This document shows, one piece after another, positions 1,149-19,096 of a stretch of DNA of 32,443 nt. Source of the stretch: an uncultured Calditrichaceae bacterium (lineage in GTDB: Bacteria; Zhuqueibacterota; Zhuqueibacteria; Oceanimicrobiales; Oceanimicrobiaceae); the NCBI GenBank assembly GCA_964629935.1, contig CAZVSL010000003.1:1-32443 (forward strand). The letters run 5' to 3'. A program made the translations under genes and the position numbers. Under the pieces are notes generated by a model, which saw only the letters and a list, made by a program, of their open reading frames with translations, was not told where the DNA came from and did no database searches. How positions within the stretch are numbered: position 1 is the stretch's first letter; each line of letters begins with the position of its first letter.

Positions 1149-1156
1149 TCTTTCAC

Positions 1157-1312
1157 CTAAAACAGAGTGTAGATAAAGGGGGCGATTGCTGTGCCGCTGG
1201 TCATATAGATCAGACCTCCCAGCAGAAACAGGGTAAGAATGATAGGAAGGAGCCAGAATTTTTTTCGAACCTTCATGAATTGCCAGAGTTCTTGCAAGAA
1301 TTCCATCAACAT
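1157..1312 (-). CDS. Small membrane protein, DUF5989-like (51 aa)
   Basis: Below the ORF-track size cutoff. The minus-strand ATG at 1312 is preceded by GAGGAG. It encodes MLMEFLQELWQFMKVRKKFWLLPIILTLFLLGGLIYMTSGTAIAPFIYTLF, ending at TAG 1159-1157. It has one TM helix. It sits 4 nt after the SxtJ-like stop and 8 nt before the carbamoyltransferase start, the arrangement I recall for DUF5989 genes. Confidence 0.7.
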   Translation of the reverse strand: MLMEFLQELWQFMKVRKKFWLLPIILTLFLLGGLIYMTSGTAIAPFIYTLF

Positions 1313-1316
1313 CTCC

Positions 1317-1700
1317 TCAAAATGGCTTTTCGAGATCCTGAGATTCGTATGTATGATTACGCGTCACCAGAACGGAATCGTTATTTTGCTTGAATGCTTT
1401 TAGCTGCAGAGAATCTTTGCCAAGCAATCTGCGCAACAGACCGACGGGTGTCACAACCAGAAAAAAAATCAGAGCAAGCACGATCCGCGGCACGACCAAT
1501 CCCAGCACATTCGACAGTCCGAGCCAGATGAAAGCCACAGGTTTATAAATGTTTGGCATGAGCATATCTAAAACCAGGGCTATCACCGCCAGTTGTACGT
1601 AGCCCGGGCGTTGCAAAAACAAAAACGTCAGGAGCAAAAGTAAGACAACAGCCATGCCGGTGTCTCTGCATTGCTCGCGTGTGATCGCATGGTAAGACAT
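1317..1700 (-). CDS. SxtJ-family small membrane protein
   Basis: 127-aa ORF with three or four hydrophobic helices (MAVVLLLLLTFLFL..., LAVIALVLDML, VAFIWLGLSNVLGLVVPRIVLALIFFLVV). It is the first gene of the tight SxtJ / DUF5989 / carbamoyltransferase triad. The family name comes from recalled sequence pattern and synteny. Confidence 0.65.
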   Translation of the reverse strand: MSYHAITREQCRDTGMAVVLLLLLTFLFLQRPGYVQLAVIALVLDMLMPNIYKPVAFIWLGLSNVLGLVVPRIVLALIFFLVVTPVGLLRRLLGKDSLQLKAFKQNNDSVLVTRNHTYESQDLEKPF

Positions 1701-5369: not shown

Positions 5370-6082
5370 GCACAGTCCTTTAGTTCTGTTTTTTCAATCG
5401 TTACTGGATTACTCGGAGTTTTGTGGCTTTGATGAAGTTTTGAACAGAGAATTAACTTCTTGTTTGCGATTATATCAAGGAATTTCAGCATACTGTCATA
5501 ATTTGTAAGAAAGATGTAACATGAATGTCATAAGAAATAAACATGTGGTTATTTTATTTAAACATCGCTAAGCTGAAATTGTCAATATTTTTGTCCGCTA
5601 TTGTCGCAATATATCGCGAAAAAAATCACGCAAACGTTAAATTTTACTTGCTATCTTAAAAAAATTGTATTATTTTCTCTACCACCATAAATGGTATCAG
5701 GGGTTATTGTCTTGCCTTAAGGAAACGGACGGGGAGATCATTCCCAGCATAACACAGGTTAGACGCACGTCTGCGTTCAGCTTGAGTTACTCACCTTTTT
5801 GCTCGATAACGCTGATGTGCCAATGGCTCTTTTTGGTTATTGACACACCGGGCGAGTGCAGCATGAGTTGGATGTTAAAAGCTTCTAATATCACACCAGC
5901 GGGGACAGTTACCCGTATTTCGTCTCATTCCCACAAACTTAAAACGTTTCTATTATTTCGCAGCCAGACCAAGTAGATGGTAAATTATAGATACCATGGG
6001 TGAATAGTACCATCAGGATTCGACAATGAAGGTAGGTGTTCAACATACATCAAGAACCGACAATGAATAGGGAGGCACATAT
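5370..6082. promoter_or_regulatory. 713-bp AT-rich divergent intergenic/leader region upstream of the T4SS-like operon and the M14 peptidase gene
   Basis: No convincing ORF. The region contains ATTGTC(N0-2)AATAT twice (5578-5588, 5600-5612) and the ACCAT-AA-ATGGT palindrome (5684-5695). It also has ATGGTA-N9-TACCAT (5977-5997) and a perfect 10-bp direct repeat CGACAATGAA (6021-6030, 6058-6067). The SD GGGAGG (6070-6075) lies 7 nt before ATG 6083. Promoter positions were not resolved. Confidence 0.4.
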
Positions 6083-6376
6083 ATGAATCACAAAAAACAC
6101 TGGTTGCTTTCTTTGTTGAGTACGTGTTTTGTACTTTTCAGCTATAACTATTTGTTTGCCGACCCAATTGATGATATTTTGCGAATCTGGCAAGAGACCA
6201 TCTGGACCTGGGGCAAGAGGATTTTTTGGTTCTTTGCCGTGGGCGCTGCTGTCGTAATTGCAGCCTCGCCTGACAACAGGAAGAAGGCGACCTATGTGTT
6301 GTTAGGCGTTATCCTTTTCTATCTATCCCCTGTGATAATAGACTTCATACAACAAGCGGCAGGGCGACCATTTTAG
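6083..6376 (+). CDS. VirB2/TrbC-like pilin candidate (97 aa)
   Basis: Strong SD. The signal-like N-terminus is MNHKKHWLLSLLSTCFVLFSYNYLFA|DP. The mature ~70 aa has two hydrophobic helices separated by the charged loop SPDNRKK, which is the VirB2/TrbC topology. It is the first gene of an operon containing VirB4. The assignment rests on topology and position only. Confidence 0.55.
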   Translation: MNHKKHWLLSLLSTCFVLFSYNYLFADPIDDILRIWQETIWTWGKRIFWFFAVGAAVVIAASPDNRKKATYVLLGVILFYLSPVIIDFIQQAAGRPF

Positions 6377-6547
6377 ATTTGTAGCCGAAATGGGTTCCAA
6401 TTAGCTTCACAGCCGACGGCCATGAAGGTTGAGTTGTGAATATGAGTTGGGTGGAATCGGCTGAACATTTCATAAAGCAAGAATATCCTGCGGCTTGGTT
6501 AGCGCCGTTTTCTTGTTTTTGAATTCCTTCGGGTTTGTTTGACTGAT

Positions 6548-6570
6548 ACTCCAATCGCTGGGATTGGAGT
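6548..6570 (+). other. Perfect 9-bp stem / 5-nt loop hairpin between the pilin-like and VirB3-like genes
   Basis: ACTCCAATC (6548-6556), loop gctgg, GATTGGAGT (6562-6570). No U-tract follows, so it is not a canonical intrinsic terminator. It may be an mRNA-stability or attenuation element. Confidence 0.35.
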
Positions 6571-6690
6571 TGTCGTTGCTGTCATACTTATGAGTGTGAT
6601 ATTTCAAGCGAAGCGACTTATGAGAGAAGCCAGACCCAGAGGTCTAGCATTAATTCGAACAGATAATTGTTACCTTTAGCCTACTCACTT

Positions 6691-6969
6691 ATGGAGCACC
6701 TAATCGAGCAGACACTATCCAAGCAAACCCTGCAGTTTGGTTTGCGCTATCAGGACTACATTGCATTGGTGCTGGTTGCAACAGTCGGTAGTTTTTTTGT
6801 GTCACGGCTGGTGTTGACCATTGTGCTGCTTGTCATGGCCGGCGTTTTTCGATACATCAATCGGAATAAGCGCCGATTTTTCTGGTCTTCAGTTTATATC
6901 TGGCTAATCACAAACACCAATTTGACAATAAGGCAGACTAAGAAACTACCACCTTTGTTAAAGGACTAG
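6691..6969 (+). CDS. VirB3/TrbD-like small inner-membrane protein candidate
   Basis: The ORF of ~92-100 aa has ATG at 6691, and the track uses TTG at 6667. It has a long hydrophobic hairpin (YIALVLVATVGSFFVSRLVLTIVLLVMAGVF). It ends 3 nt before the VirB4-like start, the canonical VirB3 position. No clear SD, so the start is uncertain. Confidence 0.5.
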   Translation: MEHLIEQTLSKQTLQFGLRYQDYIALVLVATVGSFFVSRLVLTIVLLVMAGVFRYINRNKRRFFWSSVYIWLITNTNLTIRQTKKLPPLLKD

Positions 6970-6972
6970 GGG

Positions 6973-9435
6973 ATGCGTCTCAGAAAAAGAGATAGTCTTT
7001 CAGACAGTTTCCATTCACACGGTATCCTGGATTTCAACAATCGCGGATACCACATCCGAAAAGATGGGGCCATCTCCATCGTTTGGAAAATCGATGCCGG
7101 CAATGGTCTGCGACATACCCCTGGTGACCTGCAGAGCTACACAGCTCAACTCACGAAGACTGTGAACTTATTGCAGCCTCACACCCAAATCGATTTTCTC
7201 TATGATAAATATGAAACGCCGTGGAGCGAACAACTGCACACGGACGTCGAAGTCAATCGTCCGGAGATTGTGAAAATGATGGAGATTCGGCGGCGCGACC
7301 TCGGTGTGCGCCGCTCATATTCTCTCGATGTTTACCTTACCGTGACGTTTAATCATCTTATCCAATACAAACCTCCCATGCGCCAGGATTTCTTCTTATT
7401 CAATCGCAGCAAGTACGCCAATCTGGTGCGTGGTAAGTTTGAGCAAGATGTCCGACACATAGAAAATGCCGCTCTGATCATCGAGAGTGAGCTGCGGTTT
7501 TTCAAATTCAAGCGTATGAGCGGTGACGATATCACGCATCTCCTCAAAGCTTATTACAACCTTTCTGCCCGTCCTGCCGAGCTCAGTGTCCGGAGCGAAC
7601 AATTCAACGGCGACATTCTTTACAAAAACTTTTATCCTCAATACGACGATCTCGCTGTCGGTCTGGACCATCTGCTGGTGGCCTCCATGATTGAGCTGCC
7701 GGACAAGGTTGTCAATCCCATCGAATTTGATAAGCGCTTCATAAAGAGTCCGCTTGAATTCTTCTTGAGTTTGCCTTTCCCTCTGCGGCTTGCAGTGCGG
7801 ATGGAGAAGCTGCCGCGGGACAAGGCCGAGGCATTTGTCAGTCTCAATCGCTTAGTCAATAAGCCCAGGTTTAACAATCTCGCGGACATGAAGATGATCG
7901 AGCTCGAAGGCGACGACAACGGCCAGGTTTATCCCGGTGTGGCCAATCTGATCGAGTTTGACAAAGACTACCTGGCCAATCTCTCGCTCACTCTCATGAC
8001 CTGGCATCCGGAAAAGCCGAGGTTGGCGGAACGTCAGGAGCGAATAATCTCATCTTTTACGCGCTTTTTTAATTCACGCGGGATGATCGAATATGGCCAG
8101 GATGCTTTGAATGTGTTCTTATCGTGTGCGCCCGGAAACTATCCATATCGCCGCATCACTGTCCGTGGTTCACATCTGGGCCACTTCGTGAATTTGAGCG
8201 ACCACTATAAAGGTATGAACAGCGGTGTGCCGCTTATCAACACGAACAACACACCGGTCTATTATGATTTGTTTTCTACTGAAAACGCAAACTACAACAC
8301 ATTGATCGTCGGTCCTTCAGGCAAGGGTAAGAGTTTCTTTTGCAACTCTTTGATTTTTAACTATATCGCTCAGGGTGTGCAGGTGATCATTCTCGATTTG
8401 AGTGGCAGTTACAAGCCGCTCGCCGATGTCCTGCAATCGGACTACATCGAGATCGACCCGCGCAAGCCTAATTATTTGGACCCTTTTCACTATTTCAATC
8501 CGCTGAAGCATGAATATGACTCGCCTGAATACCTGGAGACGCTTACCTACCTGCAATCATTTCTCAACCTGATGGTCAAGGAAGAGTCGGGGAGTGAGCT
8601 CGGCAAAGATAAGAAAGCTGTCATTTATGAATCGCTGGAAAAGTTCTTTCAATCGCACGGCAATAACGTTTCTAACATGCGCGGCTATTGGATGTTTCTG
8701 CGTGAACAGGGTGAGGCTATTTTTGAGGATGATCAGGCTTTCTACCGGTATGTGGTCAAGACGCTCGCCTACTATCTCGAGAAGTCTGCCCTAAAGGTTT
8801 ACTTTGATCCGGCAAATCGTAACCATCTCCGTATCGACAGGCAAAAGCGTGTGGATCTGATCGCATTCGACTTGAAGGGCATTGAGAAGGAAATCGAGCT
8901 GATGCCACTCTATTCAAACCTGCTCAGCATGCTGGTGATGGATGCGTTGCACAGTGATTATCACAAGTTTCTGTTCATTCTGGACGAGAGTTGGAAGGCC
9001 CTGGAGAGCTCAGATATTATCTACGGTCTGGTTAAGGAGACCGGCCGGACATCACGCAAGCATTACGGTTCAGTTGGTGCGCTTACGCAAAACATCAAGG
9101 ACCTGCAACAGGGGGACCTTGGCGCTTCGGTGCTCACCAACAGTTACAGCAAGTTTCTTTTGCCGCATTCCGGTGAAGATGTTGAGACTGCGATACAGGT
9201 GCTCGACATGACGCGTGCTGAGCAGCACGCATTCCGCAACCTCAAGGAGCGCGAAATCCTTATGTTACGAGAAGGCGAGCCCGTCATTTTCCGCATTCCG
9301 TTTTCGAAGCTTGATTATTGGATTTGGACGACCAGACCTGATGAGGTCAACAAGCGCAACGTGCAAATGCGCAAAGACAGAAGTGTTATCAGTGCCGCAT
9401 CGGAGTTAGCTGAAAAAAGTATGATTCAGGAATGA
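6973..9435 (+). CDS. virB4: VirB4/TrbE/TraG(CTn)-family type IV secretion ATPase (820 aa)
   Basis: Walker A GPSGKGKS (nt 8311-8334) and Walker B LFILDES (nt 8971-8991) are present. The length of ~800 aa and the large N-terminal domain fit VirB4. The context of VirB2/3-like genes upstream and a VirB6-like gene downstream also fits. Confidence 0.9.
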   Translation: MRLRKRDSLSDSFHSHGILDFNNRGYHIRKDGAISIVWKIDAGNGLRHTPGDLQSYTAQLTKTVNLLQPHTQIDFLYDKYETPWSEQLHTDVEVNRPEIVKMMEIRRRDLGVRRSYSLDVYLTVTFNHLIQYKPPMRQDFFLFNRSKYANLVRGKFEQDVRHIENAALIIESELRFFKFKRMSGDDITHLLKAYYNLSARPAELSVRSEQFNGDILYKNFYPQYDDLAVGLDHLLVASMIELPDKVVNPIEFDKRFIKSPLEFFLSLPFPLRLAVRMEKLPRDKAEAFVSLNRLVNKPRFNNLADMKMIELEGDDNGQVYPGVANLIEFDKDYLANLSLTLMTWHPEKPRLAERQERIISSFTRFFNSRGMIEYGQDALNVFLSCAPGNYPYRRITVRGSHLGHFVNLSDHYKGMNSGVPLINTNNTPVYYDLFSTENANYNTLIVGPSGKGKSFFCNSLIFNYIAQGVQVIILDLSGSYKPLADVLQSDYIEIDPRKPNYLDPFHYFNPLKHEYDSPEYLETLTYLQSFLNLMVKEESGSELGKDKKAVIYESLEKFFQSHGNNVSNMRGYWMFLREQGEAIFEDDQAFYRYVVKTLAYYLEKSALKVYFDPANRNHLRIDRQKRVDLIAFDLKGIEKEIELMPLYSNLLSMLVMDALHSDYHKFLFILDESWKALESSDIIYGLVKETGRTSRKHYGSVGALTQNIKDLQQGDLGASVLTNSYSKFLLPHSGEDVETAIQVLDMTRAEQHAFRNLKEREILMLREGEPVIFRIPFSKLDYWIWTTRPDEVNKRNVQMRKDRSVISAASELAEKSMIQE

Positions 9436-9438
9436 GCC

Positions 9439-10320
9439 ATGAAGTTTAAAGCCATTATATCGATACTCTTTTTGTTTTTCCTCGATATTCAACCCGCTTC
9501 AGCACAGTTCCTTAATCCGTCTGACGCTGCCGTTGTGGCGAAGCTGGGCGATATTCTCAGGACACATCGTGAACATCTCGTGGAAGCGATCAGGACGGCG
9601 CGTGGTATGGAGCGTACCTTTGAGACCTTAAAGAACCTCAATGAGTACGAGAAGACGCTGCGCCGGGATATCAACTTCATTTCCAGCCTCGACCTGAGCC
9701 GCCTGGACGATCTCGAACGAATCGTTCTCTATGGCGATCAAACTGATTTCTATTTTCGGACCTTGACAAGCAAGATTAACAGAGACCTCTACAACTCGCG
9801 CCAGATGGGGCGCTATGGCGAAGGCTTTTTGGCGTCCATGGACGGTCTCGGCCTTGATGCAAACATGCTGCGGGCGATCTACGACAATGAACAGTCGCTG
9901 AAGGAAGCGGGCATCACCCCCGAGGAGGCCAACGCCCTGGTCAAAGAGTTAAGCGTAGAATCTACTATGCTGGATCTCTATGAGATCAGAGGCACGGAGA
10001 ATCTGATCAAAGCCCTGACAGAACAGGGTGAGTATCTCAAGAACGTGGCGGCGGATTCTTCAGTCAAGCTTGATCAGGGCCAGCGCGTCATGCTGCTCAC
10101 CAAGAGTGAGGAAAGCCTGATCGAAGCGCTGAAATATCAGCAGCAATTGGCGGAGCAGCTCAAAGAGAGAAATGAAAAAATATCGCGCAAGTTGATGTTA
10201 AAAAGCGAGATGGAGTCTGAGATTAAGCAACTGGAAAAATTCTACGAATGGCATGCATCGTTTGAGCGCAACCTGGGTTTTTTTGACACGGAGTACATAA
10301 AACGGCAGCAGTTTAAATAG
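9439..10320 (+). CDS. Secreted, largely alpha-helical/coiled-coil protein in the VirB5/TrbJ position (293 aa)
   Basis: The signal peptide is MKFKAIISILFLFFLDIQPASAQ. The mature part has no Cys. It is rich in heptad-like charged helices (...QQLAEQLKERNEKISRKLMLKSEMESEIKQLEKF...). The start lies 3 nt after the VirB4 stop. I recognise no family, so the functional call is positional. Confidence 0.6.
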   Translation: MKFKAIISILFLFFLDIQPASAQFLNPSDAAVVAKLGDILRTHREHLVEAIRTARGMERTFETLKNLNEYEKTLRRDINFISSLDLSRLDDLERIVLYGDQTDFYFRTLTSKINRDLYNSRQMGRYGEGFLASMDGLGLDANMLRAIYDNEQSLKEAGITPEEANALVKELSVESTMLDLYEIRGTENLIKALTEQGEYLKNVAADSSVKLDQGQRVMLLTKSEESLIEALKYQQQLAEQLKERNEKISRKLMLKSEMESEIKQLEKFYEWHASFERNLGFFDTEYIKRQQFK

Positions 10321-10329
10321 GGGCCTATT

Positions 10330-11241
10330 ATGTTCCAATCAATCCAGAGCATTTACCAACAAAGCGATGAGGTTCTGACTGCGATCGTCGATCTGTCCTG
10401 GAAGATTTTGCCATTTGTAGCTGTGATCATGTTGCTGTACTACATATATGATGCATTCAAGAACAATCGGGGCAACTATACGGACTATATCTACCGCATC
10501 GCCATCGCGACGATTGCGCTGGTGAGTTACAAGTGGTGGAGCGTCGAGATTGCGACGATTATTATTGAGATAGCCAAGCTATTCAAACACGAGGGTATGT
10601 CGGACTACTATAACGTGGTCATCGAGCTTTTCAAAAGCCATGCTTCAAATGAGGCAGCCTGGTATGAAGTAGGTATCCAATTCAGGGGGTTTTTCTACTA
10701 TTCGCTGCTCTGGTTTAGTGTTGCGCTTATCACCCTTGCCACTGTTTTCTTCGAGATGTTGCAATTTTGGGCTCAGGCATTTCTATGGGTGCTTGGGCCG
10801 TTGGCCATCGTGCTAACCTTGTTTCCCAATTTCCGTGGCGCGTTCCTGAGCTGGCTGAATCGCTTCATCGCTGTCGGATTCTGGTCTGTGATTTACATGG
10901 TCGCCACCCGGATTTTCAATGGGCTTATCGGTCAGACCTTTTCCGATTTGTGGGTGAGCAACCAGACCGGCATCGACGTTGGGACCCAGGGTTTCTCTAT
11001 CATGAAACTGGTGATCTTCAGTGTGGCATTTTTCTTTGTCATCGTGCGGATTCCGACCATGACCGGCTGGCTTACACATCAGAGTTTTGCGAGCATCAGC
11101 ACTATCATTGGCGCGGGCGCGAGTTTGGGCGCCAGCAAAGTCATGACAGTAACCCGGACGATGGGGAATGTAGTCGGTCGGGCTGGGTTGACCCGCCTGC
11201 AGCAGGCCGGCAGCGCCATTGCCAGCAAGTTAGGACGTTAA
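10330..11241 (+). CDS. VirB6/TrbL/TraJ-like polytopic inner-membrane protein (303 aa)
   Basis: It has at least 6 predicted TM helices (ILPFVAVIMLLYYIY, IAIATIALVSY, FFYYSLLWFSVALITLATVFF, AFLWVLGPLAIVLTLF, FIAVGFWSVIYMVA, LVIFSVAFFFVIV) and a hydrophilic tail. Its position between the VirB5-like and VirB8-like slots also fits. Confidence 0.6.
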   Translation: MFQSIQSIYQQSDEVLTAIVDLSWKILPFVAVIMLLYYIYDAFKNNRGNYTDYIYRIAIATIALVSYKWWSVEIATIIIEIAKLFKHEGMSDYYNVVIELFKSHASNEAAWYEVGIQFRGFFYYSLLWFSVALITLATVFFEMLQFWAQAFLWVLGPLAIVLTLFPNFRGAFLSWLNRFIAVGFWSVIYMVATRIFNGLIGQTFSDLWVSNQTGIDVGTQGFSIMKLVIFSVAFFFVIVRIPTMTGWLTHQSFASISTIIGAGASLGASKVMTVTRTMGNVVGRAGLTRLQQAGSAIASKLGR

Positions 11242-11257
11242 CAAATAGGGAAGACGT

Positions 11258-11965
11258 ATGAATCCATCAGATGTTGAGTCTGCCCGATCAGCGGAGCAGA
11301 CACGTCGCAGTAATAACCAGGCCCAGGTTAAGCCGGATGGCATCGAGGACCCGGTATCTGGCTTCATTTGGCGCACTTTTGTCGGCAACAAGAAAAAGGA
11401 AGATTTCTTTAAGAGCGCCATCCTATTGCTGCTTATTATCAATGGCGTCCTGGCGTTCTTTCTCTATAATCAAAAGACCCAAAAATCTGTTTATGTTATC
11501 GATGCAGGGCAGCCCAAACTGGCAAGCATGATAGATAGTGATGTGCGTGTGGACGAACAAATTCGTTTTTTCCTAAAGCTGTGGACAAAATTGCTTATCG
11601 AGATAAACGGGGACAACTACGCTGAAAACCGCGAAATGCTGAAGCGTCTATCCAGTGAGAAACTGATGCAACGCATTCTCAACTCTGAAAGCTCAAGCGG
11701 CAATCGGCTGGTGAAGGAAGTCATACAGTCTGAGACCATGCGGCTGCGGGTGGTGGACATTGTCATCGACGAGATAGAGCGCAAGGGAAGTCTAATCAAT
11801 GTGCGTTTTAGCGAGGTCATCCAGATAGATGTCCCGGATGGCAGCGAACGCTATGTCACAAGGCATCAGGCTCAGATTATTCCGACAAAGTATTCGTTAA
11901 ATGGCATGGGTCTGGCGATGGTGGATCTCGACAATCTCTGGAAGTTAGAAAGGAGAACAGAATAA
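11258..11965 (+). CDS. VirB8/TrbF/TraK-like bitopic membrane protein (235 aa)
   Basis: A ~55-aa cytoplasmic N-terminus is followed by a single TM (AILLLLIINGVLAFFLY) and a ~160-aa periplasmic domain. Size and topology match VirB8. The stop overlaps the next start (TAATG at 11963-11967). Confidence 0.5.
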   Translation: MNPSDVESARSAEQTRRSNNQAQVKPDGIEDPVSGFIWRTFVGNKKKEDFFKSAILLLLIINGVLAFFLYNQKTQKSVYVIDAGQPKLASMIDSDVRVDEQIRFFLKLWTKLLIEINGDNYAENREMLKRLSSEKLMQRILNSESSSGNRLVKEVIQSETMRLRVVDIVIDEIERKGSLINVRFSEVIQIDVPDGSERYVTRHQAQIIPTKYSLNGMGLAMVDLDNLWKLERRTE

Positions 11966-13029
11966 TGGACGTTCCTGGATATAACTTCAAACTGAACAAG
12001 AAATGGGTGATTCTGGGGGCGATCGGCTTTGTCGTGCTTTTTCTGGTTGGCTCCTTTCTTGTTTCTTACTATGAATACAAGACAACGGGTCCGATTTCAG
12101 AGGAGCCCGTCAGTTCTTATGATGACGCGAGCTTTAAGCGGTTGCAGGAGGAGCTAACAAAAGATAAGCCACAGCCCATCGATCAAAAAGAGGTTTTGGA
12201 TGAGCTGGTCAAACAGACCAATGAAGAGCAAGAAAGGCAAGATGGCTCCGTTAGGCGAGTTAGCCGCGAAGAGTTGTATACCAAAGGCACATTTGACACG
12301 CTTGCCGTCAATTGTGGCGTTTTACTTGAAAAATACAAAGAACTTGTTATAAAATATCATGAGCTTGAGAAACAGCTCGACGGCAAAAGACGACCGATTG
12401 CAAAAAAAGCAAGTCCACCGGCTCGCTCCTCGTCCAGTTCCGGATTTGCCAGCCGTTCAGGCAGCAGCAGGGGCGGTGGCGCCAGTGCCAACGGTAGCTT
12501 TGACTACACCCGTTATGTTCGTGGCAGCGGCACCAATGAGCTGCTTAATGAAGGTGGGGGCGGCACAGTGAGCGGACGAAACGCATCCTTCACATGGGTG
12601 ACTTTATCGTTTCCGCAGCGCCAGCGCATCTTCAATCAATCGGTCCTTGTGTTTGACGTTGCCGAACCATTTGTTTTGGATGGTTTCAGCGTGCCGCGTA
12701 CCGCCCGCGTTGAAGGCGTGGCACAAGTGAGCCGCGGTCGCGGTCGCATATTTGTTAATTTTAATCGTATTTACACGCAAGACCAAACCATTGAAGTCGA
12801 AGGCGAGGCCTTCGCACTCGACAGGTCGCGAGGCCTCAACGTATTCATTCATGGAGAGAGCAGTCTTGCGGAAAGCTTCAAACGTGAAGCAACAGACCTT
12901 GTTGGTCTGATCGATCCTTCTCGTACCGGCGTCGGCAGAACCGTGCTTCAGGATACTGACGTCGGACAGGAGGTCTTTGGTATATTGGAGGCTGGCACCA
13001 TGGTGCTGGCCAACTTAAGAAGAAAATGA
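11965..13029 (+). CDS. VirB10/TrbI/TraM-like envelope-spanning protein (354 aa)
   Basis: After a short N-terminus comes a TM (WVILGAIGFVVLFLVGSFLV). Next are a coiled-coil segment and a Ser/Gly-rich low-complexity linker (ASPPARSSSSSGFASRSGSSRGGGASANGS). The C-terminal beta-rich domain (...FSVPRTARVEGVAQVSRGRGRIFVNFNRIYTQDQTIEVEGEAFALDRSRGLNVFIHG) resembles the TraM/TrbI C-terminal pattern. A 4-nt ATGA overlap links it to the next gene. Confidence 0.55.
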   Translation: MDVPGYNFKLNKKWVILGAIGFVVLFLVGSFLVSYYEYKTTGPISEEPVSSYDDASFKRLQEELTKDKPQPIDQKEVLDELVKQTNEEQERQDGSVRRVSREELYTKGTFDTLAVNCGVLLEKYKELVIKYHELEKQLDGKRRPIAKKASPPARSSSSSGFASRSGSSRGGGASANGSFDYTRYVRGSGTNELLNEGGGGTVSGRNASFTWVTLSFPQRQRIFNQSVLVFDVAEPFVLDGFSVPRTARVEGVAQVSRGRGRIFVNFNRIYTQDQTIEVEGEAFALDRSRGLNVFIHGESSLAESFKREATDLVGLIDPSRTGVGRTVLQDTDVGQEVFGILEAGTMVLANLRRK

Positions 13030-13937
13030 GTTATCCTCAAAAGCTTGCCGCAGTTGTGCTGTTCGCCTGTTTGTTGTGTTGGCAAACAGCAACCACACAG
13101 GTGAAGAGCGGCGATATCGTGATGCACCTCGAGATCGGTACGCTCTCAGAGATCGTATTGCCTGAGCCCTATACTACCGTTCAGATTCCTGTTCAAATCG
13201 TTGAGATGCGGGACGTGCCCGGCAGAAACAAACGGGTAATCACCTTGCATCCTGTCATCCAGCAAAGCGCCAGGACCAATATTCGAATTTATACACAAAA
13301 CTATGATTTCAACATCAAACTTTTGCTAAATACACGTGGCGCCGCAGCCACCGAAAGCCTGGATTTACACAGATACGTTGCGACCCGACCCGGGAAGAAT
13401 GGCGCCGCTGGCAATGGCGGCACGTCAAACGGACATGCGAATGGTGCAGGCTCCACGAATACAGCCGAAAGCGGGGACATCGATGGCCGGCGACCTGCTA
13501 CCATCCAGGATTTCAGCTTTCGCAACCTGCTGAAAGTTAAGCCGGACTTGCTGAAGTCCAAAGAACAGGCTCCTGCCATCGTGAAAAATCGTGTCGTCTT
13601 TGCAATCGACCATATTTTTCATCATAAAGATAAGATCGTGTTCAAGGCGACCTTGTGGAACAAGTCCAGCGTGCCTTATCATATTCTGCATCTTGCTATT
13701 ACTTACAAAGAAAAGACCGGCATTCCTTTGTTGAACGAACGGCAGACAAAATCATTGTCTCTAGCACCTTTCTATGAAAGGTACTCTCGCAAGATCGTGC
13801 CGCCCGGGAAAAAGTCGCATATCCTGTATGTGACATCCAGGCTCAGTCCACAGGATACAGGTTTTTTTAATTGCGTTCTTGTTGAGAAGTACGGCGCCCG
13901 TAATTTTGATTTTAACATTCCATCTTACATCAAATAG
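13026..13937 (+). CDS. VirB9/TraN-like secreted protein (303 aa)
   Basis: Signal peptide MSYPQKLAAVVLFACLLCWQTATTQ. The N-terminal segment ...TNIRIYTQNYDFNIKLLLN resembles the VirB9 N-domain pattern (TNL.v.T..r.Y.F.L). A Gly/Asn/Ala-rich linker follows. The C-terminal segment VFAIDHIFHHKDKIVFKATLWNKSSVPYHILHLAITYKEK resembles the Bacteroidetes TraN (DUF4138) pattern. Confidence 0.55.
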   Translation: MSYPQKLAAVVLFACLLCWQTATTQVKSGDIVMHLEIGTLSEIVLPEPYTTVQIPVQIVEMRDVPGRNKRVITLHPVIQQSARTNIRIYTQNYDFNIKLLLNTRGAAATESLDLHRYVATRPGKNGAAGNGGTSNGHANGAGSTNTAESGDIDGRRPATIQDFSFRNLLKVKPDLLKSKEQAPAIVKNRVVFAIDHIFHHKDKIVFKATLWNKSSVPYHILHLAITYKEKTGIPLLNERQTKSLSLAPFYERYSRKIVPPGKKSHILYVTSRLSPQDTGFFNCVLVEKYGARNFDFNIPSYIK

Positions 13938-13959
13938 CCAATCTTAGCCAAAAGATAGA

Positions 13960-14451
13960 ATGAAAGCAGCCTTGATATTGCTGATAACAATGATACCTTC
14001 TACGAGTCTTCTGGCTCAATATCAGAAAATGGTCAGTTCGAGTGTGGTCAGTTTGTCCGGTTCAAAAACGTACGCGAATGTTGCCTGGAGCAAACAACTG
14101 ACAAGCCGGACGATGTTTACCATCTCTGGTTTGTATTTTCGTGACGAAACCCGCGTAATAAAAACCGACAATTTTGGCGCTGACCTGGGCTTAAGCCGAT
14201 GGCTCTTGCGTTTCAGTGATGTATACGTTGGCGCCGGGCTGGGCGGCTATATGCTGCATACCAATGCTGAAAGCGCCGCGGGCTCTGAAGCTGATGACCT
14301 GAGCTTTGGCTTAGATTTGAGAGGTGAGATCGAGTTCTATCCGCTCTGGTGGCTGGTCATGTTCGGTGAAGTTAAGCAGCTTGTCTTCGTGGGATCAGAC
14401 TTCTTCAATCGGAAATTCATCCTCGGGGGCGGCATTAAATTCGTATTTTAG
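13960..14451 (+). CDS. Small outer-membrane beta-barrel protein candidate (163 aa)
   Basis: Signal peptide MKAALILLITMIPSTSLLAQ. Alternating hydrophobic beta-strand patterns with Gly/aromatic girdles are present. The C-terminus ...GGGIKFVF ends in Phe, the classical OMP sorting signature. Confidence 0.55.
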   Translation: MKAALILLITMIPSTSLLAQYQKMVSSSVVSLSGSKTYANVAWSKQLTSRTMFTISGLYFRDETRVIKTDNFGADLGLSRWLLRFSDVYVGAGLGGYMLHTNAESAAGSEADDLSFGLDLRGEIEFYPLWWLVMFGEVKQLVFVGSDFFNRKFILGGGIKFVF

Positions 14452-14474
14452 TCTGGCATCACGGATAGAGAGGG

Positions 14475-16268
14475 ATGAGATTGAGAAGACGGCAGGCACT
14501 TGCATCTATTATTGTGCTCCTTTTCGTTAGCTGTTCCGACCGCAAAGAGAATAATCCCCTGACGGAAAACAACGAACCTCCGCAGTTGCAGCTCGTTGGC
14601 TTTGCTGCAGATACACTTGTATTTGTCAGCGGCCAGGTTTACCCATTTGAATTCCAGGCGACAGATGATGGCGAAAGAGAGTTAGATGTCCTGGCCAAAG
14701 TAGTGGGCGAAACCGGCAGCGTGGCGATTGTTGACAATACCTCCGGTGGCCTGTACAAAGGTGAATTTACGCCTTCACTCAAGGGCGAACATCTGATCGA
14801 AGTTTCAGCGTCAGATGGATTGGAAGAGACAACTGAGACGTTGAGCATTTTTATGGGAGATAACCACGATCCCGTGGCTGTTATCACGCTGCAGGAAATC
14901 GATCGTGATGCCGAAAATCTGCTCTTCACCTATGAATTTGATGCCAGTCAGTCCACGGACCAGGATGGCGCTTTGGTCAAGGCAAGGTGGAATCTCGATG
15001 GTTTTGAAACCGAAGGCGCCATAGCGCAGAAAATCCAACATACATTTGATTATTACGCCGACTACCGAATCGAGCTCGTGGTCGAAGATGAACATGGCGG
15101 CACGGGCGAAGCTCTGCGGGTTATCGACAACTCTCGCCCTCTGGCAAGCTTCGAGATTCGTCCCGCTGCAGAAGCCCGGAATAGTGAACAAATTACCCTC
15201 GATGCATCAAACAGTGTTTCGCCGCGCGGACAATTGGTGGCATATCGATGGTTTAATCGCGTGCCGGGAGTTGGTATTGATATTCTTGAAGAAAGCGCCG
15301 ACAACATTTTCCGGTACACTGTTAATTTGCCGGTCGGGCAAAATCAACTTGGATTGGTCGTTGAGGATGAGGAGAGCAATGTGTCTGACACATCCTGGGT
15401 AGCCCTCGATGTACTTAATACGCCTCCTGAGGTTGACTACAATTTCGCGACCGAGCTGGAGCGAATTATCATAACCGAAAACCTCTCTGTGGATGGCGAT
15501 CCGGGTGATTCCCTGTCCTATAGCTGGTTCATCAACGACACGCTCCAGACTGAGCAGGAGAATGAGGCATTACCTACTTTCCAGGTGCGAGGTGAGGTCT
15601 ACCAGCTCACTTTGCAAACCAGCGATAATCATGGCAGCTCCGGCTCTCGCAGCCGTTCTGTTAGCGTGCCTGGTGTACCGGAAGCGCATTTTGTGTTCTC
15701 AGCCTCAAATGCTGATACGCTGGATGCTCAAAACGGACAGCAGGTGGTTGTTGACGGCAACGATTCGATTCCGGGCAACGAAAGCGGTGGCATCGAGACC
15801 TTTACCTGGTTCTTGCGCGGTGAGAACCATCCGCTGGAGGTGCTCAGTGAAGGCCGGTTTGCTGACCTGACCATCGATATTAACCATCCGATTGGGGAGT
15901 ATGAAGTTGGTCTGGAAATCACCAATCGTGAAGGGCTGATTAGTATTACAACCTGGCAGAAGATGTCCGTGGTGAACAGTGCGCCAACGGCCGAATTCAC
16001 CTGCCAGCTTGATGCCTTTGAGCAAGGTTTCGTATACAGAATCATCACCAACGATTCCAGCGACCCCGACCCCGGCGATTCAATCCGGTTCAAATGGTTC
16101 CTGGATGGTGAGGAGCAGGAACAAACCGGGCCGACGCCGTCGTTCACGCGCGGCCGTAACGAGTTTGTCGAGACCATAACTCTTCAGGTTTTGGACAATC
16201 ATGGCGGAATCGGTGAAAAATCCGTCACAGACGGCTGCAGCGGTTCGAGCGTGGGCACGGACTTCTAG
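14475..16268 (+). CDS. Lipoprotein with about six tandem PKD/Ig-like domains (597 aa)
   Basis: A lipobox-like LLFVSC places Cys at residue 20. Repeated modules of ~85-95 aa carry PKD hallmarks, for example FDASQSTDQDGALVKARWNLDG...YADYRIELVVEDEHGGTGEA, LDASNSVSPRGQLVAYRWF...LGLVVEDEESNVS, SVDGDPGDSLSYSWFIND...LTLQTSDNHGSSGS and SSDPDPGDSIRFKWFLDGEE...ITLQVLDNHGGIGE. Confidence 0.8.
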   Translation: MRLRRRQALASIIVLLFVSCSDRKENNPLTENNEPPQLQLVGFAADTLVFVSGQVYPFEFQATDDGERELDVLAKVVGETGSVAIVDNTSGGLYKGEFTPSLKGEHLIEVSASDGLEETTETLSIFMGDNHDPVAVITLQEIDRDAENLLFTYEFDASQSTDQDGALVKARWNLDGFETEGAIAQKIQHTFDYYADYRIELVVEDEHGGTGEALRVIDNSRPLASFEIRPAAEARNSEQITLDASNSVSPRGQLVAYRWFNRVPGVGIDILEESADNIFRYTVNLPVGQNQLGLVVEDEESNVSDTSWVALDVLNTPPEVDYNFATELERIIITENLSVDGDPGDSLSYSWFINDTLQTEQENEALPTFQVRGEVYQLTLQTSDNHGSSGSRSRSVSVPGVPEAHFVFSASNADTLDAQNGQQVVVDGNDSIPGNESGGIETFTWFLRGENHPLEVLSEGRFADLTIDINHPIGEYEVGLEITNREGLISITTWQKMSVVNSAPTAEFTCQLDAFEQGFVYRIITNDSSDPDPGDSIRFKWFLDGEEQEQTGPTPSFTRGRNEFVETITLQVLDNHGGIGEKSVTDGCSGSSVGTDF

Positions 16269-16279
16269 GAGTAAACAGC

Positions 16280-16543
16280 ATGGCTTTAGTCTACAAGATC
16301 ATAGAGTTACGCGGCCGCACCTTTATGAAAGGCAGACTGCGACTGAAGCAAGTTGAAGACTTGCTGAATAAATATTCTGCTGACGGCTGGGATCTCGACC
16401 GCATCATGCCCAGCAATCAGTTTTCTTTTTTAAAGGGCAAGAAGGATGTTTATCTTGTTTTTTTTAAGATGGACCGGGATGAGTATTTTCGCAGAACAAA
16501 AGGAAAGAAGATATCTGCTACAGAAGAGAGTAACGGCGCGTAA
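16280..16543 (+). CDS. DUF4177-like small protein (87 aa), last gene of the operon
   Basis: A GGAG SD precedes the ATG. The sequence YKIIEL...LLNKYSADGWDLDRIMP...VYLVFFK matches my recollection of the DUF4177 pattern (small alpha/beta protein with a GWEL/GWDL motif). A basic C-terminal tail follows. Confidence 0.5.
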   Translation: MALVYKIIELRGRTFMKGRLRLKQVEDLLNKYSADGWDLDRIMPSNQFSFLKGKKDVYLVFFKMDRDEYFRRTKGKKISATEESNGA

Positions 16544-16554
16544 ATCTTGGCGCG

Positions 16555-17304
16555 CTAGGCCATCAACTCGCTCAGTCGCGCATATCCACGTTTGCTCACT
16601 TTGAGTTTTGTGCCATCCTGCAGCACAGCTCGATAGCTGTCCTTCCCCAAGACTTCCATTCGGCTGATAAACGAAGTTCTCACAATGTAGGACCTGTGTA
16701 TGCGCACAAATCCGTTCGGATCCAGGTTTGCTTCAAAGAACTTCATGGTTTTGGCCTTGAGGTGGCTACCGTCTTTGGTGTGCAACATGACGTAGTCATC
16801 CTGTGCTTCCAGCCACAGCAGTTTTTCAACCGGAATCAGGTGAATCTTGTGACCGGTCTTCACCACCACGCGCTTCAGAAACTCGATGCGCTCATCCTTA
16901 TGTTTGAGCAGGTCGCTGATGACCTGCTTGTTGCGTGGTTGATCTTGAAGGAAAAGTTTGGCCCGTTTCACGGCTTCGGCAAAGCGCTCTTTGGAGTAGG
17001 GCTTTAGCAGATAGTCGGCGGCGCTGACCTCGAATGCTTTCAGGGCGTATTGATCGAACGCCGTACTAAAGATCACCACGGGTGGTTCATCAATTATCTC
17101 GAGCATTTCGAATCCTGTCAGCTTGGGCATCTGGATATCGAGGAAAATCAAATCCGGGCTAAGCGCGTTTATCTGCTTTAGGCCATCGAAGCCGTTGCTG
17201 CACTCTGCTGTAATCTCGATATCAGGGAAGTCCTGCAGATATTGCCTGATGACCGTACGCGCCGGCGCCTCGTCATCGATGATGATTGCAGATATTTTAT
17301 TCAA
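16555..17304 (-). CDS. LytR/AlgR-family response regulator (receiver + LytTR DNA-binding domain)
   Basis: Receiver motifs are IIIDDEAPAR and DLIFLDIQMPKLTGFE. The C-terminal LytTR pattern is ...IHLIPVEKLLWLEAQDDYVMLHT...FVRIHRSYIV. Confidence 0.9.
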   Translation of the reverse strand: MNKISAIIIDDEAPARTVIRQYLQDFPDIEITAECSNGFDGLKQINALSPDLIFLDIQMPKLTGFEMLEIIDEPPVVIFSTAFDQYALKAFEVSAADYLLKPYSKERFAEAVKRAKLFLQDQPRNKQVISDLLKHKDERIEFLKRVVVKTGHKIHLIPVEKLLWLEAQDDYVMLHTKDGSHLKAKTMKFFEANLDPNGFVRIHRSYIVRTSFISRMEVLGKDSYRAVLQDGTKLKVSKRGYARLSELMA

Positions 17305-17306
17305 CC

Positions 17307-18380
17307 TTAATTCTCCTCGACCGGAATAAACATATTGACGCGAAATCTGTCTTCTTCTTTTTCAATATCGAGTAAATTGACGTGGTTATACATCATTTGC
17401 AGACGGTTTCGCACGTTGCTTATCCCGATTCCTTCTCTGTTAGAAGTTACAGCGTCCGGATCAAAATTGTTCTCCACGGTGATCTTCAAGAAGTTGCCAT
17501 TCTGCTGGCACTTGAACTTGATATCAACCGGTTTCAGGCTTTCATAGACGCCGTGTTTGATGGCGTTTTCGATTAGCGGTTGAAATATCATGCTTGGTAC
17601 TCTCTTGCTCATGCAGGTTGACTCAACGTGCTGTGTAAATCCGAGTTTGTCGCCAAAACGCACTTTTTCGATATCCAGATAGAGCTTGAGTGAATCCAGT
17701 TCCTCCTGCATCGTATTTTTTTGCCGTTCACTGCTTGAGAGAGTATAGCGCAAATAGTCTCCCAACTTTATTGTCATTTCACCTGCTTTTTGCGGATCCG
17801 TCATGGTCAGAGCGTTGATTGAATTCAGGCTATTGAAAATAAAGTGCGGATTGATCTGGAATTTCAGTGAGCGTAGTTCCGCTTCTTTGACCAGCATTTC
17901 CAGTTTCGACTCTTTGATGAGCTGGCGCCTGTAGTTTTCGGAAAAGATATAGACATAATAGAAGGATACGATAAGGAAATAGAACAAGACACCGATGAGT
18001 CCACGCCAAACTATGGAGTTGCGCAGGAAGGCGAGATAGTCAGCCTCGACAGCGAACACTTCCGACAGAAATAAGTAGGAAACGCCAAGCCAGAGCACTG
18101 AGGTAAAAGCTGACGCAAACAGGTGATGCTCCAGCACCTTGGGCCATCTTAGACGGTCGATGGTGACAACCTTGGTGCTATACCAGAATGCAAGCCCGAG
18201 CAGACAATAAAATGCCGTGAATGTCAAACTGTCGATGAGCACCCATTGCAGCGGAAGCTTTTGATGGAGCGTCAACACCACAACATGCACGCTGGCGACA
18301 AGCGCCCAGGTGGCAAGATAGAGGTAGATGCTGCGCTTAGAATTCAGAATTGGATGGTCCATTGAAAGCGTAATCCTCAA
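17307..18380 (-). CDS. LytS/YehU-type sensor histidine kinase (multi-TM sensor + His_kinase + HATPase)
   Basis: Four to five N-terminal TM helices. The H-box is LRSLKFQINPHFIFNSLNSI, the N-box FQPLIENAIKHG and the G-box REGIGISNVRNRL. The track start is TTG 18380, which overlaps the upstream stop as TTGA. ATG 18362 is an alternative start. Confidence 0.85.
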   Translation of the reverse strand: MRITLSMDHPILNSKRSIYLYLATWALVASVHVVVLTLHQKLPLQWVLIDSLTFTAFYCLLGLAFWYSTKVVTIDRLRWPKVLEHHLFASAFTSVLWLGVSYLFLSEVFAVEADYLAFLRNSIVWRGLIGVLFYFLIVSFYYVYIFSENYRRQLIKESKLEMLVKEAELRSLKFQINPHFIFNSLNSINALTMTDPQKAGEMTIKLGDYLRYTLSSSERQKNTMQEELDSLKLYLDIEKVRFGDKLGFTQHVESTCMSKRVPSMIFQPLIENAIKHGVYESLKPVDIKFKCQQNGNFLKITVENNFDPDAVTSNREGIGISNVRNRLQMMYNHVNLLDIEKEEDRFRVNMFIPVEEN

Positions 18381-19096
18381 ACGCCGGTTGGCCGTGACAC
18401 TTTTAGTTCGATAGCGCCAAACAACACCATGCCCTTGATAATGAGTTTGCTGTCTTCCTGCAGGGTAGGCGCTGCCTCGGGTCTCGAGTCTTCCAGTCCA
18501 CCGAAAATTGGCACGGCGTCGACAACCACGTGCCAGTCATCAGGAACGGTGATCTCGGTGCCGCCGAAAATCGTCAGGATATCCAGATAATTGTCGCCTT
18601 TGGCGAGGCGTGCTCTGCTGAAGTTGATCTCAGCGCCACCGAATATGGTGGTGATGCGCCCACCTTCGAAGTTATCTGAAGCGACGTCCCTTTCATTGCC
18701 GCCGAAAAATGCCATGGCGCTGAGCCAATTTTGCGAAGTTCTGTTTTTGGTTTGGCCTCTGTTACTGTGCCGCAGCAGAATGGAAACGCCAATGCCTATA
18801 AGTAGTAATGGCCAGAATCGCCAAATCATGCGCCAGTCCAGAATGCCAAGGTAACCAAGCGAAAAGACGATACCGATGCCCAGAAATACCCAGCCAGCGG
18901 CGCGCTCATCCCTGGCGCTATCCTTTAGTTTTGCAATTCCGATCAGAATAAATATTACCGGCCAGAATTGCCAGACGTCGCCAAAATCGATGATGTCAAG
19001 ATTGTCGAGCAGAAACAAACCACCAAGTGCGATGAGTCCTATGGCAACCCAGGGGATTTGTTTTGGCGCCGCATGCCTTTTGTTGTGATTGTGCAC
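18377..19096 (-). CDS. LiaF-like membrane protein (cell-envelope stress module, DUF2154-type C-terminal domain)
   Basis: A GTG start has an AGGAG SD. Four TM helices (WVAIGLIALGGLFLL, FWPVIFILIGIAKL, ...) are followed by repetitive FGG-containing beta segments (FFGGNERDV..., TIFGGAEINF..., TIFGGTEITVPDDW..., PIFGGLED) typical of LiaF-type domains. Confidence 0.7.
   Translation of the reverse strand: MHNHNKRHAAPKQIPWVAIGLIALGGLFLLDNLDIIDFGDVWQFWPVIFILIGIAKLKDSARDERAAGWVFLGIGIVFSLGYLGILDWRMIWRFWPLLLIGIGVSILLRHSNRGQTKNRTSQNWLSAMAFFGGNERDVASDNFEGGRITTIFGGAEINFSRARLAKGDNYLDILTIFGGTEITVPDDWHVVVDAVPIFGGLEDSRPEAAPTLQEDSKLIIKGMVLFGAIELKVSRPTGV

Follow-up and report, generated by a model that had tools for sequence, protein, structure and literature searches.

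A rare MPF_B-related type IV secretion gene cluster without linked relaxase or coupling protein genes in a putative KSB1-like bacterium

Eight type IV secretion system (T4SS) classes are recognised, which were defined mainly from cultured bacteria. The mating-pair formation (MPF) class MPF_B, represented by CTnDOT, is regarded as essentially confined to the Bacteroidota (99% of the detected systems), is covered by published profiles for TraE to TraQ, and corresponds to the VirB components as TraE=VirB2, TraF=VirB3, TraG=VirB4, TraI=VirB5, TraJ=VirB6, TraK=VirB8, TraM=VirB10, and TraN=VirB9 (Guglielmini et al. 2014, PMC4027160). Chromosomal T4SSs without a neighbouring relaxase gene (MOBless T4SSs) are a recognised and recurrent outcome that is read as exaptation (Guglielmini et al. 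2011, 2013; PMC3158045, PMC3548315), and experimentally established non-conjugative functions are named for MPF_T, MPF_I, and MPF_F only (PMC3548315). In the Patescibacteria, chromosomal T4SSs occur lineage-wide, are mostly relaxase-less, and are read as co-opted for non-conjugative roles (PMC12102498). Here, we describe a cluster of 11 tightly spaced open reading frames (ORFs), all located on the + strand, which spans positions 6083-16543 of the window, i.e., the whole stretch of 32,443 nucleotides of contig CAZVSL010000003.1 that was analysed, and which almost certainly encodes a T4SS related to MPF_B.

This assignment is based on Pfam and NCBIfam matches, five profile-profile matches, reciprocal hits to TraK, and a gene order shared with CTnDOT and with the locus of Flavobacterium johnsoniae. 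For the profile-profile comparisons, family alignments from seven non-redundant related loci were compared with families from approximately 75 Bacteroidota conjugative-transposon loci fetched by a VirB4 profile. A preliminary description of this DNA, made from the sequence alone, had reported 11 co-directional, packed genes, which was confirmed by the ORF listing. The intergenic gaps measure 3-23 bp and two junctions overlap (TAATG at 11963-11967 and ATGA at 13026-13029). The single large gap, situated between the first and the second gene, amounts to 314 bp if counted from ATG 6691 and to 290 bp if counted from TTG 6667. The cluster contains the following features:

6083-6376, + strand: VirB2/TraE-like pilin, 97 aa; signal peptide present, two hydrophobic helices, AAGRPF conserved at the C-terminus
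6377-6690, + strand: spacer, 314 nt in the window genome only and ~70 nt in its relatives according to the alignment
6691-6969, + strand: VirB3/TraF-like small membrane protein, 92 aa (ORF open from TTG 6667)
6973-9435, + strand: VirB4/TraG ATPase, 820 aa, the sole ATPase of the cluster
9439-10320, + strand: secreted protein in the TraH/TraI (VirB5) slot, 293 aa, with a signal peptide, predicted to be all-helical
10330-11241, + strand: VirB6/TraJ polytopic inner-membrane protein, 303 aa, with at least four hydrophobic segments
11258-11965, + strand: TraK/VirB8-like bitopic protein, 235 aa, with a cytoplasmic N-terminus, one transmembrane segment (residues 51-69), and a periplasmic domain of ~160 aa
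11965-13029, + strand: TraM/VirB10-like bitopic protein, 354 aa, with an N-terminal transmembrane segment, a Ser/Gly-rich linker, and a conserved C-terminal domain
13026-13937, + strand: TraN/VirB9-like secreted protein (DUF4138), 303 aa, by domain and profile matches
13960-14451, + strand: TraO homologue, 163 aa; signal peptide present, ...GGGIKFVF at the C-terminus
14475-16268, + strand: PKD-repeat lipoprotein, 597 aa (Pfam PKD_4, 3.7e-18)
16280-16543, + strand: DUF4177 protein, 87 aa (Pfam DUF4177, 1.7e-7), co-oriented after an 11-bp gap

The VirB4 of the cluster, termed unambiguous in the preliminary description, is genuine. It matches Pfam P-loop_TraG (1e-26) as well as the NCBIfam models TraC-F-type (9e-48) and VirB4_CagE (6e-29), and its family profile matches the solved VirB4 structures 4AG5 and TrwK and, in hhalign, the Bacteroidota TraG family (100% probability, E 1.6e-45). 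Walker A (GPSGKGKS, residues 447-454) at 8311-8334 and Walker B (FILDE, residues ~668-672) at ~8974-8988 are invariant across 16 VirB4 homologues.

The remaining proteins had been named by size and topology. Similarity to Tra components was now found for TraJ, TraM, TraN, and TraO in profile-profile comparisons and for TraK in reciprocal hits. The polytopic inner-membrane protein matches Pfam TrbL with 26.1 bits (cut-off 25.9), NCBIfam TraJ with 2e-4, and Bacteroidota TraJ in hhalign with 96.3%. The corresponding values of the TraM/VirB10-like protein are 25.4 bits for Pfam Transposon_TraM (cut-off 25.1) and 97.3% in hhalign against TraM. The TraN/VirB9-like protein is matched by Pfam DUF4138 (1.2e-6) and NCBIfam TraN (5e-5), and its family aligns to TraN with 98.9% (E 1.4e-17, 242 columns). 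PF10626 TraO proteins are the top Bacteroidota matches of a hidden Markov model (HMM) of the TraO-like family, which in hhalign matches Bacteroidota TraO over the full length (95.3%, E 2e-8, 173 columns), and an interpretation of this outer-membrane beta-barrel as a non-T4SS gene was therefore rejected. An extra gene for a 332-aa protein without family match lies between the TraN and TraO genes of one relative (L096, 17159-18157).

For the TraK/VirB8-like protein, reciprocal best profile hits with Bacteroidota TraK were obtained (7.5e-5 and 4.6e-5), the slot after TraJ is common to both, and its topology fits a VirB8-like protein; hhalign of the family against TraK gave 15% only, and the AlphaFold2 single-sequence model reached a pLDDT of 38, at which the fold is not predictable. 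The 293-aa protein in the VirB5 slot has no Pfam, NCBIfam, or PDB match, but is conserved in each of the eight lineage loci whose sequence includes the slot. Three of the four top, weak matches of its HMM (1e-3 to 0.2) are Bacteroidota ORFs from the TraG-TraJ interval or carriers of DUF4141. In hhalign against the Bacteroidota families it reached 20% at best, and its AlphaFold2 single-sequence model is helical and of low confidence (pLDDT 43). Since only weak matches were obtained, its VirB5-like role is suggested by position and composition. PDB profile searches with the TraK-like, VirB5-slot, TraN, and TraO families returned noise only.

At the beginning of the cluster, the pilin matches Pfam TrbC/VirB2 with 1.7e-4, which is under the curated cut-off, and its orthologues in the related loci L087 and L097 match TrbC weakly. 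The VirB3-like protein matches Pfam TraL (0.009) and VirB3 (0.016) below cut-off, and its orthologue in the related locus L084 matches VirB3 weakly. The start of this gene is most likely ATG 6691 and not 6667, as judged from the resulting length of 92 aa, which matches all orthologues. Among the eight top Bacteroidota matches of the VirB3-like family HMM, six, including the top three, are ORFs situated just upstream of TraG (best 2e-4). In hhalign, the VirB2- and VirB3-like families gave no significant match to Bacteroidota TraE/TraF; topology and position fit. The spacer between both genes is predicted to be strongly structured (fold z-score -3.5), and neither an Rfam match nor a second copy in any fetched DNA was found. 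It could represent a small insertion or, alternatively, a leader or attenuator with a regulatory role downstream of the pilin gene.

Several Pfam matches thus lie under or just at the curated cut-offs and two proteins are without detectable family, as would be expected for an unrelated envelope system built from an ATPase of the HerA/FtsK type and membrane proteins of similar size. This interpretation is effectively refuted by five independent profile-profile matches of 95-100% to CTnDOT-type proteins in preserved order, by the match of the VirB4 profile to solved VirB4 structures, and by the linkage of relatives to a TrwC relaxase (see below). Among the general constituents of a T4SS, a VirB4-family ATPase with Walker A and B as well as a VirB6-like polytopic inner-membrane protein and VirB9- and VirB10-like envelope-spanning proteins are present.

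Regarding the gene order, the preliminary description assumed a hybrid of the Trb and the Bacteroidetes arrangements. This view was rejected: the whole order is that of CTnDOT/MPF_B, TraE-F-G-I-J-K-M-N (PMC4027160), and the F. johnsoniae locus reads TraG-(3 ORFs)-TraJ-TraK-(86 aa)-TraM-TraN. The accessory families TraJ, TraK, TraM, TraN, and TraO of MPF_B are consequently all found in CTnDOT order. The absence of VirB11 and VirB1, which had been taken as a signal, is uninformative because the published MPF_B profiles include neither (PMC4027160). TraH, TraL, TraP, TraQ, and TraA-D were not detected in the cluster, no extra genes being present, and HMMs of the Bacteroidota TraH/TraI-slot ORFs, TraL, and the post-TraN ORF yielded nothing significant against the window lineage.

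Three genes had been regarded as additions that are foreign to any canonical T4SS. This holds for the DUF4177 gene, which was observed at the T4SS in the window and in its closest relative (L089) only and is probably a local addition, so that its membership in the system is doubtful. It does not hold for the TraO homologue and for the PKD lipoprotein. The latter is encoded in seven out of seven lineage loci that extend past TraN (VirB4 43-80% identical), and the lipobox Cys and the adjacent NP(L/V) motif are kept in all orthologues. In the relaxase-linked clade with 33% VirB4 identity, a giant PKD-repeat protein of 5850-5876 aa follows the T4SS (L087, 18556-22430; L098, 11208-15238). Starting at the lipobox, the N-terminal part of the 5850-aa protein (lipobox, NPL motif, and first repeats) is collinear with the PKD lipoprotein of the window (E 1e-28). 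Due to its presence in relaxase-linked members as well, the PKD protein is considered an ancestral partner of this T4SS lineage rather than a mark of the orphan version. Among six core relatives, the PKD lipoprotein (34-63% identity) and TraO (39-57%) are the fastest-evolving components, which suits surface exposure. Possibly, the PKD lipoprotein is a lineage-specific accessory that acts as a VirB7-like outer-membrane anchor and/or as a contact adhesin.

In contrast to the accessory proteins, VirB4 places the system apart from MPF_B. It scored 58.9 bits against TIGR03783 (cut-off 261), which is lower than against the TraC-F-type model (162.8 bits). In a rough neighbour-joining (NJ) VirB4 tree with few references (MPF_B, MPF_F, MPF_T, and MPF_FA), the lineage was monophyletic in 99.5% of the bootstraps and was placed outside the MPF_B clade as a separate lineage, with MPF_B as its sister in 42.5% and MPF_F in 7.5%. 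On the basis of these sequences, the lineage is MPF_B-related by its accessory proteins and a separate deep branch by its VirB4.

The lineage is also rare. In a collection of 5.8 billion proteins, 20 VirB4 homologues were found, and an exhaustive HMMER scan of 1.84 billion representatives yielded four clusters with E <1e-100, beyond which the identity drops to 27%. Among the GTDB species genomes, a single match at 55% is followed by Bacteroidota TraG at 22-26% identity. A close match of the locus to a known plasmid or integrative and conjugative element (ICE) was looked for and rejected, the best plasmid match being a VirB4 of Hymenobacter with 24% identity. No lineage member occurred among the matches listed in a scan of metagenome contigs, and a scan of viral contigs returned only distant VirB4s in short segments (<=37% identity). 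PolA, encoded in the window, shares 70% identity with proteins that carry the name candidate division KSB1 and has hundreds of relatives at 57-78%; as far as can be judged from such similarities, the host is a KSB1-like bacterium of the FCB group. At similar identity, fewer relatives exist for VirB4 (7 clusters at >=66%) than for PolA (~30 clusters at >=69%), which indicates that the module is patchy in the host lineage.

Neither a relaxase nor a type IV coupling protein (T4CP) gene accompanies the cluster. As stated in the preliminary description, the window lacks a coupling protein, relaxase, integrase, tRNA, and att-like flank, which was confirmed by domain, tRNA, and repeat scans. In detail, no tRNA occurs in the window, no mobility, T4CP, or relaxase domain was detected in its other ORFs or in the 3 kb beyond its left end, and a search for flanking direct repeats revealed only short, chance-level ones, none of them convincing. 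A 15-nt direct repeat (87% identical, 5411-5425 and 16598-16612) brackets the cluster almost exactly, its second copy lying within the LytTR gene; due to its chance-level length it was not taken as an att site. The GC content of the cluster (49.0%) and its GC content at third codon positions (GC3, 57.6%) are close to those of the flanks (51.0% and 59.5%, respectively).

The remaining window ORFs are of housekeeping or regulatory type and encode an M14 peptidase, AraC-Ada, a LiaF/His_kinase/LytTR module, an M24 peptidase, a beta-helix protein, PolA, DUF3467, TPR proteins, a transglutaminase-like protein, PlsY, a FakA-DegV fusion, and a TPR-PPIase, while a carbamoyltransferase, an SSF transporter, and a Calx-beta protein are encoded in the 3 kb left of the window, which were read from a 51-kb contig on which the window takes up approximately 13.8-46.2 kb. 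The neighbours named before (M14 peptidase, LytTR two-component system, and polA) are thereby confirmed and extended by PlsY, FakA, and others. An ICE that extends past the cluster was rejected because of polA, PlsY, FakA, ispH, and other host genes in the flanks.

Related loci whose VirB4 is at least 55% identical were defined as the core clade, which comprises seven contexts, i.e., the window and six further loci:

L089, VirB4 80% identical: left neighbours AraC-Ada and M14 peptidase as in the window, then ispH and an XPB helicase
L084, VirB4 70% identical: YchF, IS66 transposase, NUDIX
L107, VirB4 67% identical: sulfatase, K+ channel, M24 peptidase
L001, VirB4 66% identical: cytochrome bc genes, TonB-type receptor
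L002, VirB4 55% identical: housekeeping flanks
L096, VirB4 55% identical: dcw cluster from mraZ to mraY, FakA

No relaxase, T4CP, or integrase was found in the ~20 kb flanks of these seven contexts, nor did the core-clade loci match an HMM built from 19 Bacteroidota T4CPs or a TrwC sequence. As a control, 28 MPF_B loci of Bacteroidota were inspected with flanks of equal size (10 kb); a T4CP was detected in 11 and a MobA/VirD2 relaxase in five of them. Of the features that characterise an ICE or a conjugative plasmid, a relaxase, a T4CP, and an integrase linked to the MPF genes were observed neither in the window nor in the flanks of the six further contexts, and att/tRNA sites and an atypical composition were not observed in the window. 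Rather, the system is intact, chromosomal, without neighbouring relaxase, and branches among conjugative relatives, as is typical for MOBless T4SSs. The earlier view that the cluster by itself is not an ICE is upheld by the lack of integrase and att site, by GC and GC3 values that match the flanks, by the left neighbours shared with the closest relative, and by the 24% identity of the best known element. Conservation of the chromosomal neighbourhood, which had been proposed for inspection, applies to the left neighbours in L089; in the other relatives the flanks differ.

Outside the core clade, linkage to mobility genes was observed. In the member with 43% VirB4 identity, a tyrosine integrase precedes the T4SS and ParA/ParB follow it, and in the 33% clade a TrwC relaxase-helicase of 1240 aa is encoded 6 kb upstream of the T4SS. 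This relaxase-helicase is intact (1240 aa) in L097 (75-3797) and in L099, and is split into three overlapping ORFs in L087 (1-2762), where either relaxase decay in one element or an assembly error may be the reason. In the NJ tree, the 33% clade branches first, followed by the 43% member and the core clade, with 87.5% and 100% support. As both branches lie outside the core clade, the polarity fits a chromosomal capture of an element-borne machine.

In the seven genomes (VirB4 55-80% identical), the core genes are intact and conserved in length as far as the contigs extend over them. For two metagenome-assembled genomes (MAGs) from which VirB4 and PolA could be paired, the identities to the window are 80/78% and 66/73%, respectively. 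The pilin is 64-79% identical in five relatives whose VirB4 is 66-80% identical, and 46% in L096 (VirB4 55%), so that its conservation is about equal to that of VirB4. In L089, two pilin paralogues (8190-8483 and 9345-9638), mutually 80% identical, are separated by a 118-aa ORF, whereas the window contains one pilin gene.

Taken together, the intact genes, the host-like composition, the parallel course of VirB4 and PolA identities, and the conserved and duplicated pilin speak for long residence rather than for a remnant in decay. A remnant of an ICE or integrated plasmid, from which the mobility and DNA-processing modules were deleted and whose remaining genes decay without function, is accordingly very unlikely. 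Such an origin would account for a conjugation-type gene set without integrase, relaxase, and T4CP and for the patchy distribution of the lineage, and the relaxase of L087 in three ORFs indicates that decay does occur in this lineage. It is hardly compatible with tight or overlapping junctions and conserved lengths in seven genomes, with a small pilin gene that ranks among the best-conserved ones and occurs twice in one genome, and with a composition that is fully ameliorated to the host. The cluster is therefore probably chromosomally fixed, functional, and MOBless.

With regard to its origin and function, we propose that the lineage began on conjugative elements, as its deeper relatives are neighbours either of a TrwC relaxase or of an integrase together with ParA/ParB. 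Within the core clade, a ten-gene module would have lost its linkage to all DNA-processing and mobility genes and, placed between housekeeping genes, would be inherited with the chromosome. VirB4 as the sole ATPase is expected to extract pilin from the inner membrane and to drive pilus assembly as well as the assembly of an envelope-spanning channel, of which TraJ, TraK, and TraM would form the inner-membrane part, and TraN, TraO, and the PKD lipoprotein the outer-membrane part. Most likely, this machine serves the host rather than its own transfer, since no substrate-recruiting coupling protein is linked, and the canonical route for cytoplasmic substrates is missing. Furthermore, recurrent exaptation of MOBless T4SSs is documented (PMC3548315). 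A non-conjugative role is nevertheless proposed only tentatively. Pilus-mediated contact or adhesion may be considered, or a ComB-like DNA uptake, which is purely hypothetical; competence genes (comEC, dprA, and comF) were not seen in any of the flanks.

Close behind such a role ranks a somewhat unlikely explanation, in which the cluster represents the MPF half of a conjugation system whose coupling protein, relaxase, and origin of transfer (oriT) are located elsewhere, on the chromosome, a plasmid, an ICE, or an integrative and mobilisable element (IME), and which transfers mobilisable elements or, Hfr-like, chromosomal segments. The nearest homologue of every component belongs to a conjugative system, relatives of the same lineage are relaxase-linked, and these relaxase-linked relatives have no T4CP within 10 kb either, so that a distant T4CP may be the norm of the lineage. 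In addition, T4CP genes are often situated beside the relaxase gene rather than beside virB4 (PMC12102498), and the scans covered contigs only. Against trans-acting conjugation stand the ~20 kb flanks of seven contexts, all of them free of relaxase and T4CP genes, and the fact that the module follows the divergence and the composition of its host. Besides, it remains intact without linked mobility at a PolA divergence down to 73%, which is more usual for host-recruited systems (PMC3548315).

Several observations weigh against a host-fixed, non-conjugative system. Only contigs were scanned, and a T4CP and a relaxase may thus sit elsewhere in the MAGs. In the relaxase-linked relatives, too, the 10 kb retrieved to either side are free of a T4CP; its absence from the neighbourhood is consequently weak evidence, and the T4CP genes of this lineage may normally be located far from the MPF genes. 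The flanks differ among the genomes except for one pair, and in L084 an IS66 transposase gene lies 1.2 kb upstream, so that relocation of the module is possible. In GCA_029261995.1, VirB4 and polA are found on separate large contigs, and the position of the module relative to polA is not fixed. The patchy distribution fits an accessory trait, and could equally reflect gain and loss of an element. Finally, the VirB5-like and VirB8-like proteins were assigned by weak similarity and position.

Outside the gene cluster, one feature deserves a description as it separates the pilin gene from the divergently oriented M14 peptidase gene:

5370-6082, no strand: intergenic region upstream of the cluster, 713 bp, AT-rich (~42% GC)

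This region is presumed to hold the promoter of the cluster. In a scan for sigma-70-type promoters, sites were no more numerous than expected by chance, and conservation of the region in the relatives was not found. Directly downstream of and convergent with the cluster, a LiaF-like membrane protein, a LytS-type histidine kinase (His_kinase), and a LytTR response regulator are encoded (16555-19096, - strand). In the relatives, this module is not conserved beside the T4SS. A 603-aa fusion of FakA (Dak2 and FakA-like domains) to a FakB-like DegV domain is encoded at 28873-30684 (- strand) and recurs ~1.7 kb from the T4SS in L096 (22154-22496), which hints that the window and the 55% clade are loosely syntenic in this region. 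A trio of carbamoyltransferase, DUF5989, and SxtJ-like genes is situated at the left end of the window (1-1700) and was also observed in L083 (2317-4683).

Considering all lines of evidence, we favour, with moderate confidence, a complete and intact MPF apparatus of a rare, deep-branching MPF_B-like lineage, which is of conjugative origin and is now host-fixed and MOBless. It is tempting to speculate further that the lineage represents a ninth, so far unclassified MPF class, which is the sister group of MPF_B and has KSB1-like FCB bacteria as its native hosts, and that its chromosomal clade is the first exaptation of a CTnDOT-related machine, in which VirB4 alone works without a coupling protein, a PKD lipoprotein acts at the outer membrane, and the host uses the machine for DNA uptake or interbacterial contact; this extended proposal is possible rather than probable. 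With a sister lineage in KSB1-like bacteria, the Bacteroides-type conjugation machine would have a history that reaches into the wider FCB group. One small family offers a series of relaxase-linked, integrase/ParAB-linked, and chromosomal MOBless forms, and with it an insight into the capture of a conjugation apparatus by its host. Current typing models (NCBIfam cut-offs, probably also CONJScan) would miss or mislabel most of the components. Should the chromosomal form indeed manage without a coupling protein, it would constitute an independent parallel to ComB and, for an uncultured phylum, a way to natural transformation or to contact between cells.

Helicobacter pylori ComB consists of equivalents of VirB2, B3, B4, and B6-B10 only, without T4CP, relaxase, and VirB11. 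The likeness of the window cluster to ComB is compositional only, and due to the different T4SS type of ComB any resemblance would be convergent. With MPF_B of CTnDOT (TraE-TraQ; PF12508, DUF4138, PF10626; Bac_Flav_CT_G/J/K/M/N), the cluster shares the families TraG, TraJ, TraK, TraM, TraN, and TraO and their order, as well as a single ATPase and the lack of VirB11 (PMC4027160). It differs in its VirB4, which is ~18-20% identical to TraG and forms a separate, weakly sister clade (42.5%), and in the NCBIfam scores of its proteins, all of them far under the curated cut-offs. Moreover, its host is KSB1-like and not a member of the Bacteroidota, an extra conserved PKD lipoprotein is present, and no relaxase, T4CP, or integrase is linked. 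The described MOBless T4SSs resemble the window system in that they are chromosomal, intact, without neighbouring relaxase or integrase, and branch among conjugative relatives, whereas the window system is MPF_B-related, originates from an uncultured phylum, and is also without a linked T4CP. The T4SS of the Patescibacteria belongs to the monoderm MPF_FATA type and occurs almost throughout its phylum; the window system, in contrast, is diderm, MPF_B-like, patchy, and rare. MOBless T4SSs as such are thus well described, and what is new here is a sister lineage of MPF_B that is rare, occurs in KSB1-like bacteria, and includes a chromosomally fixed, relaxase-less clade.

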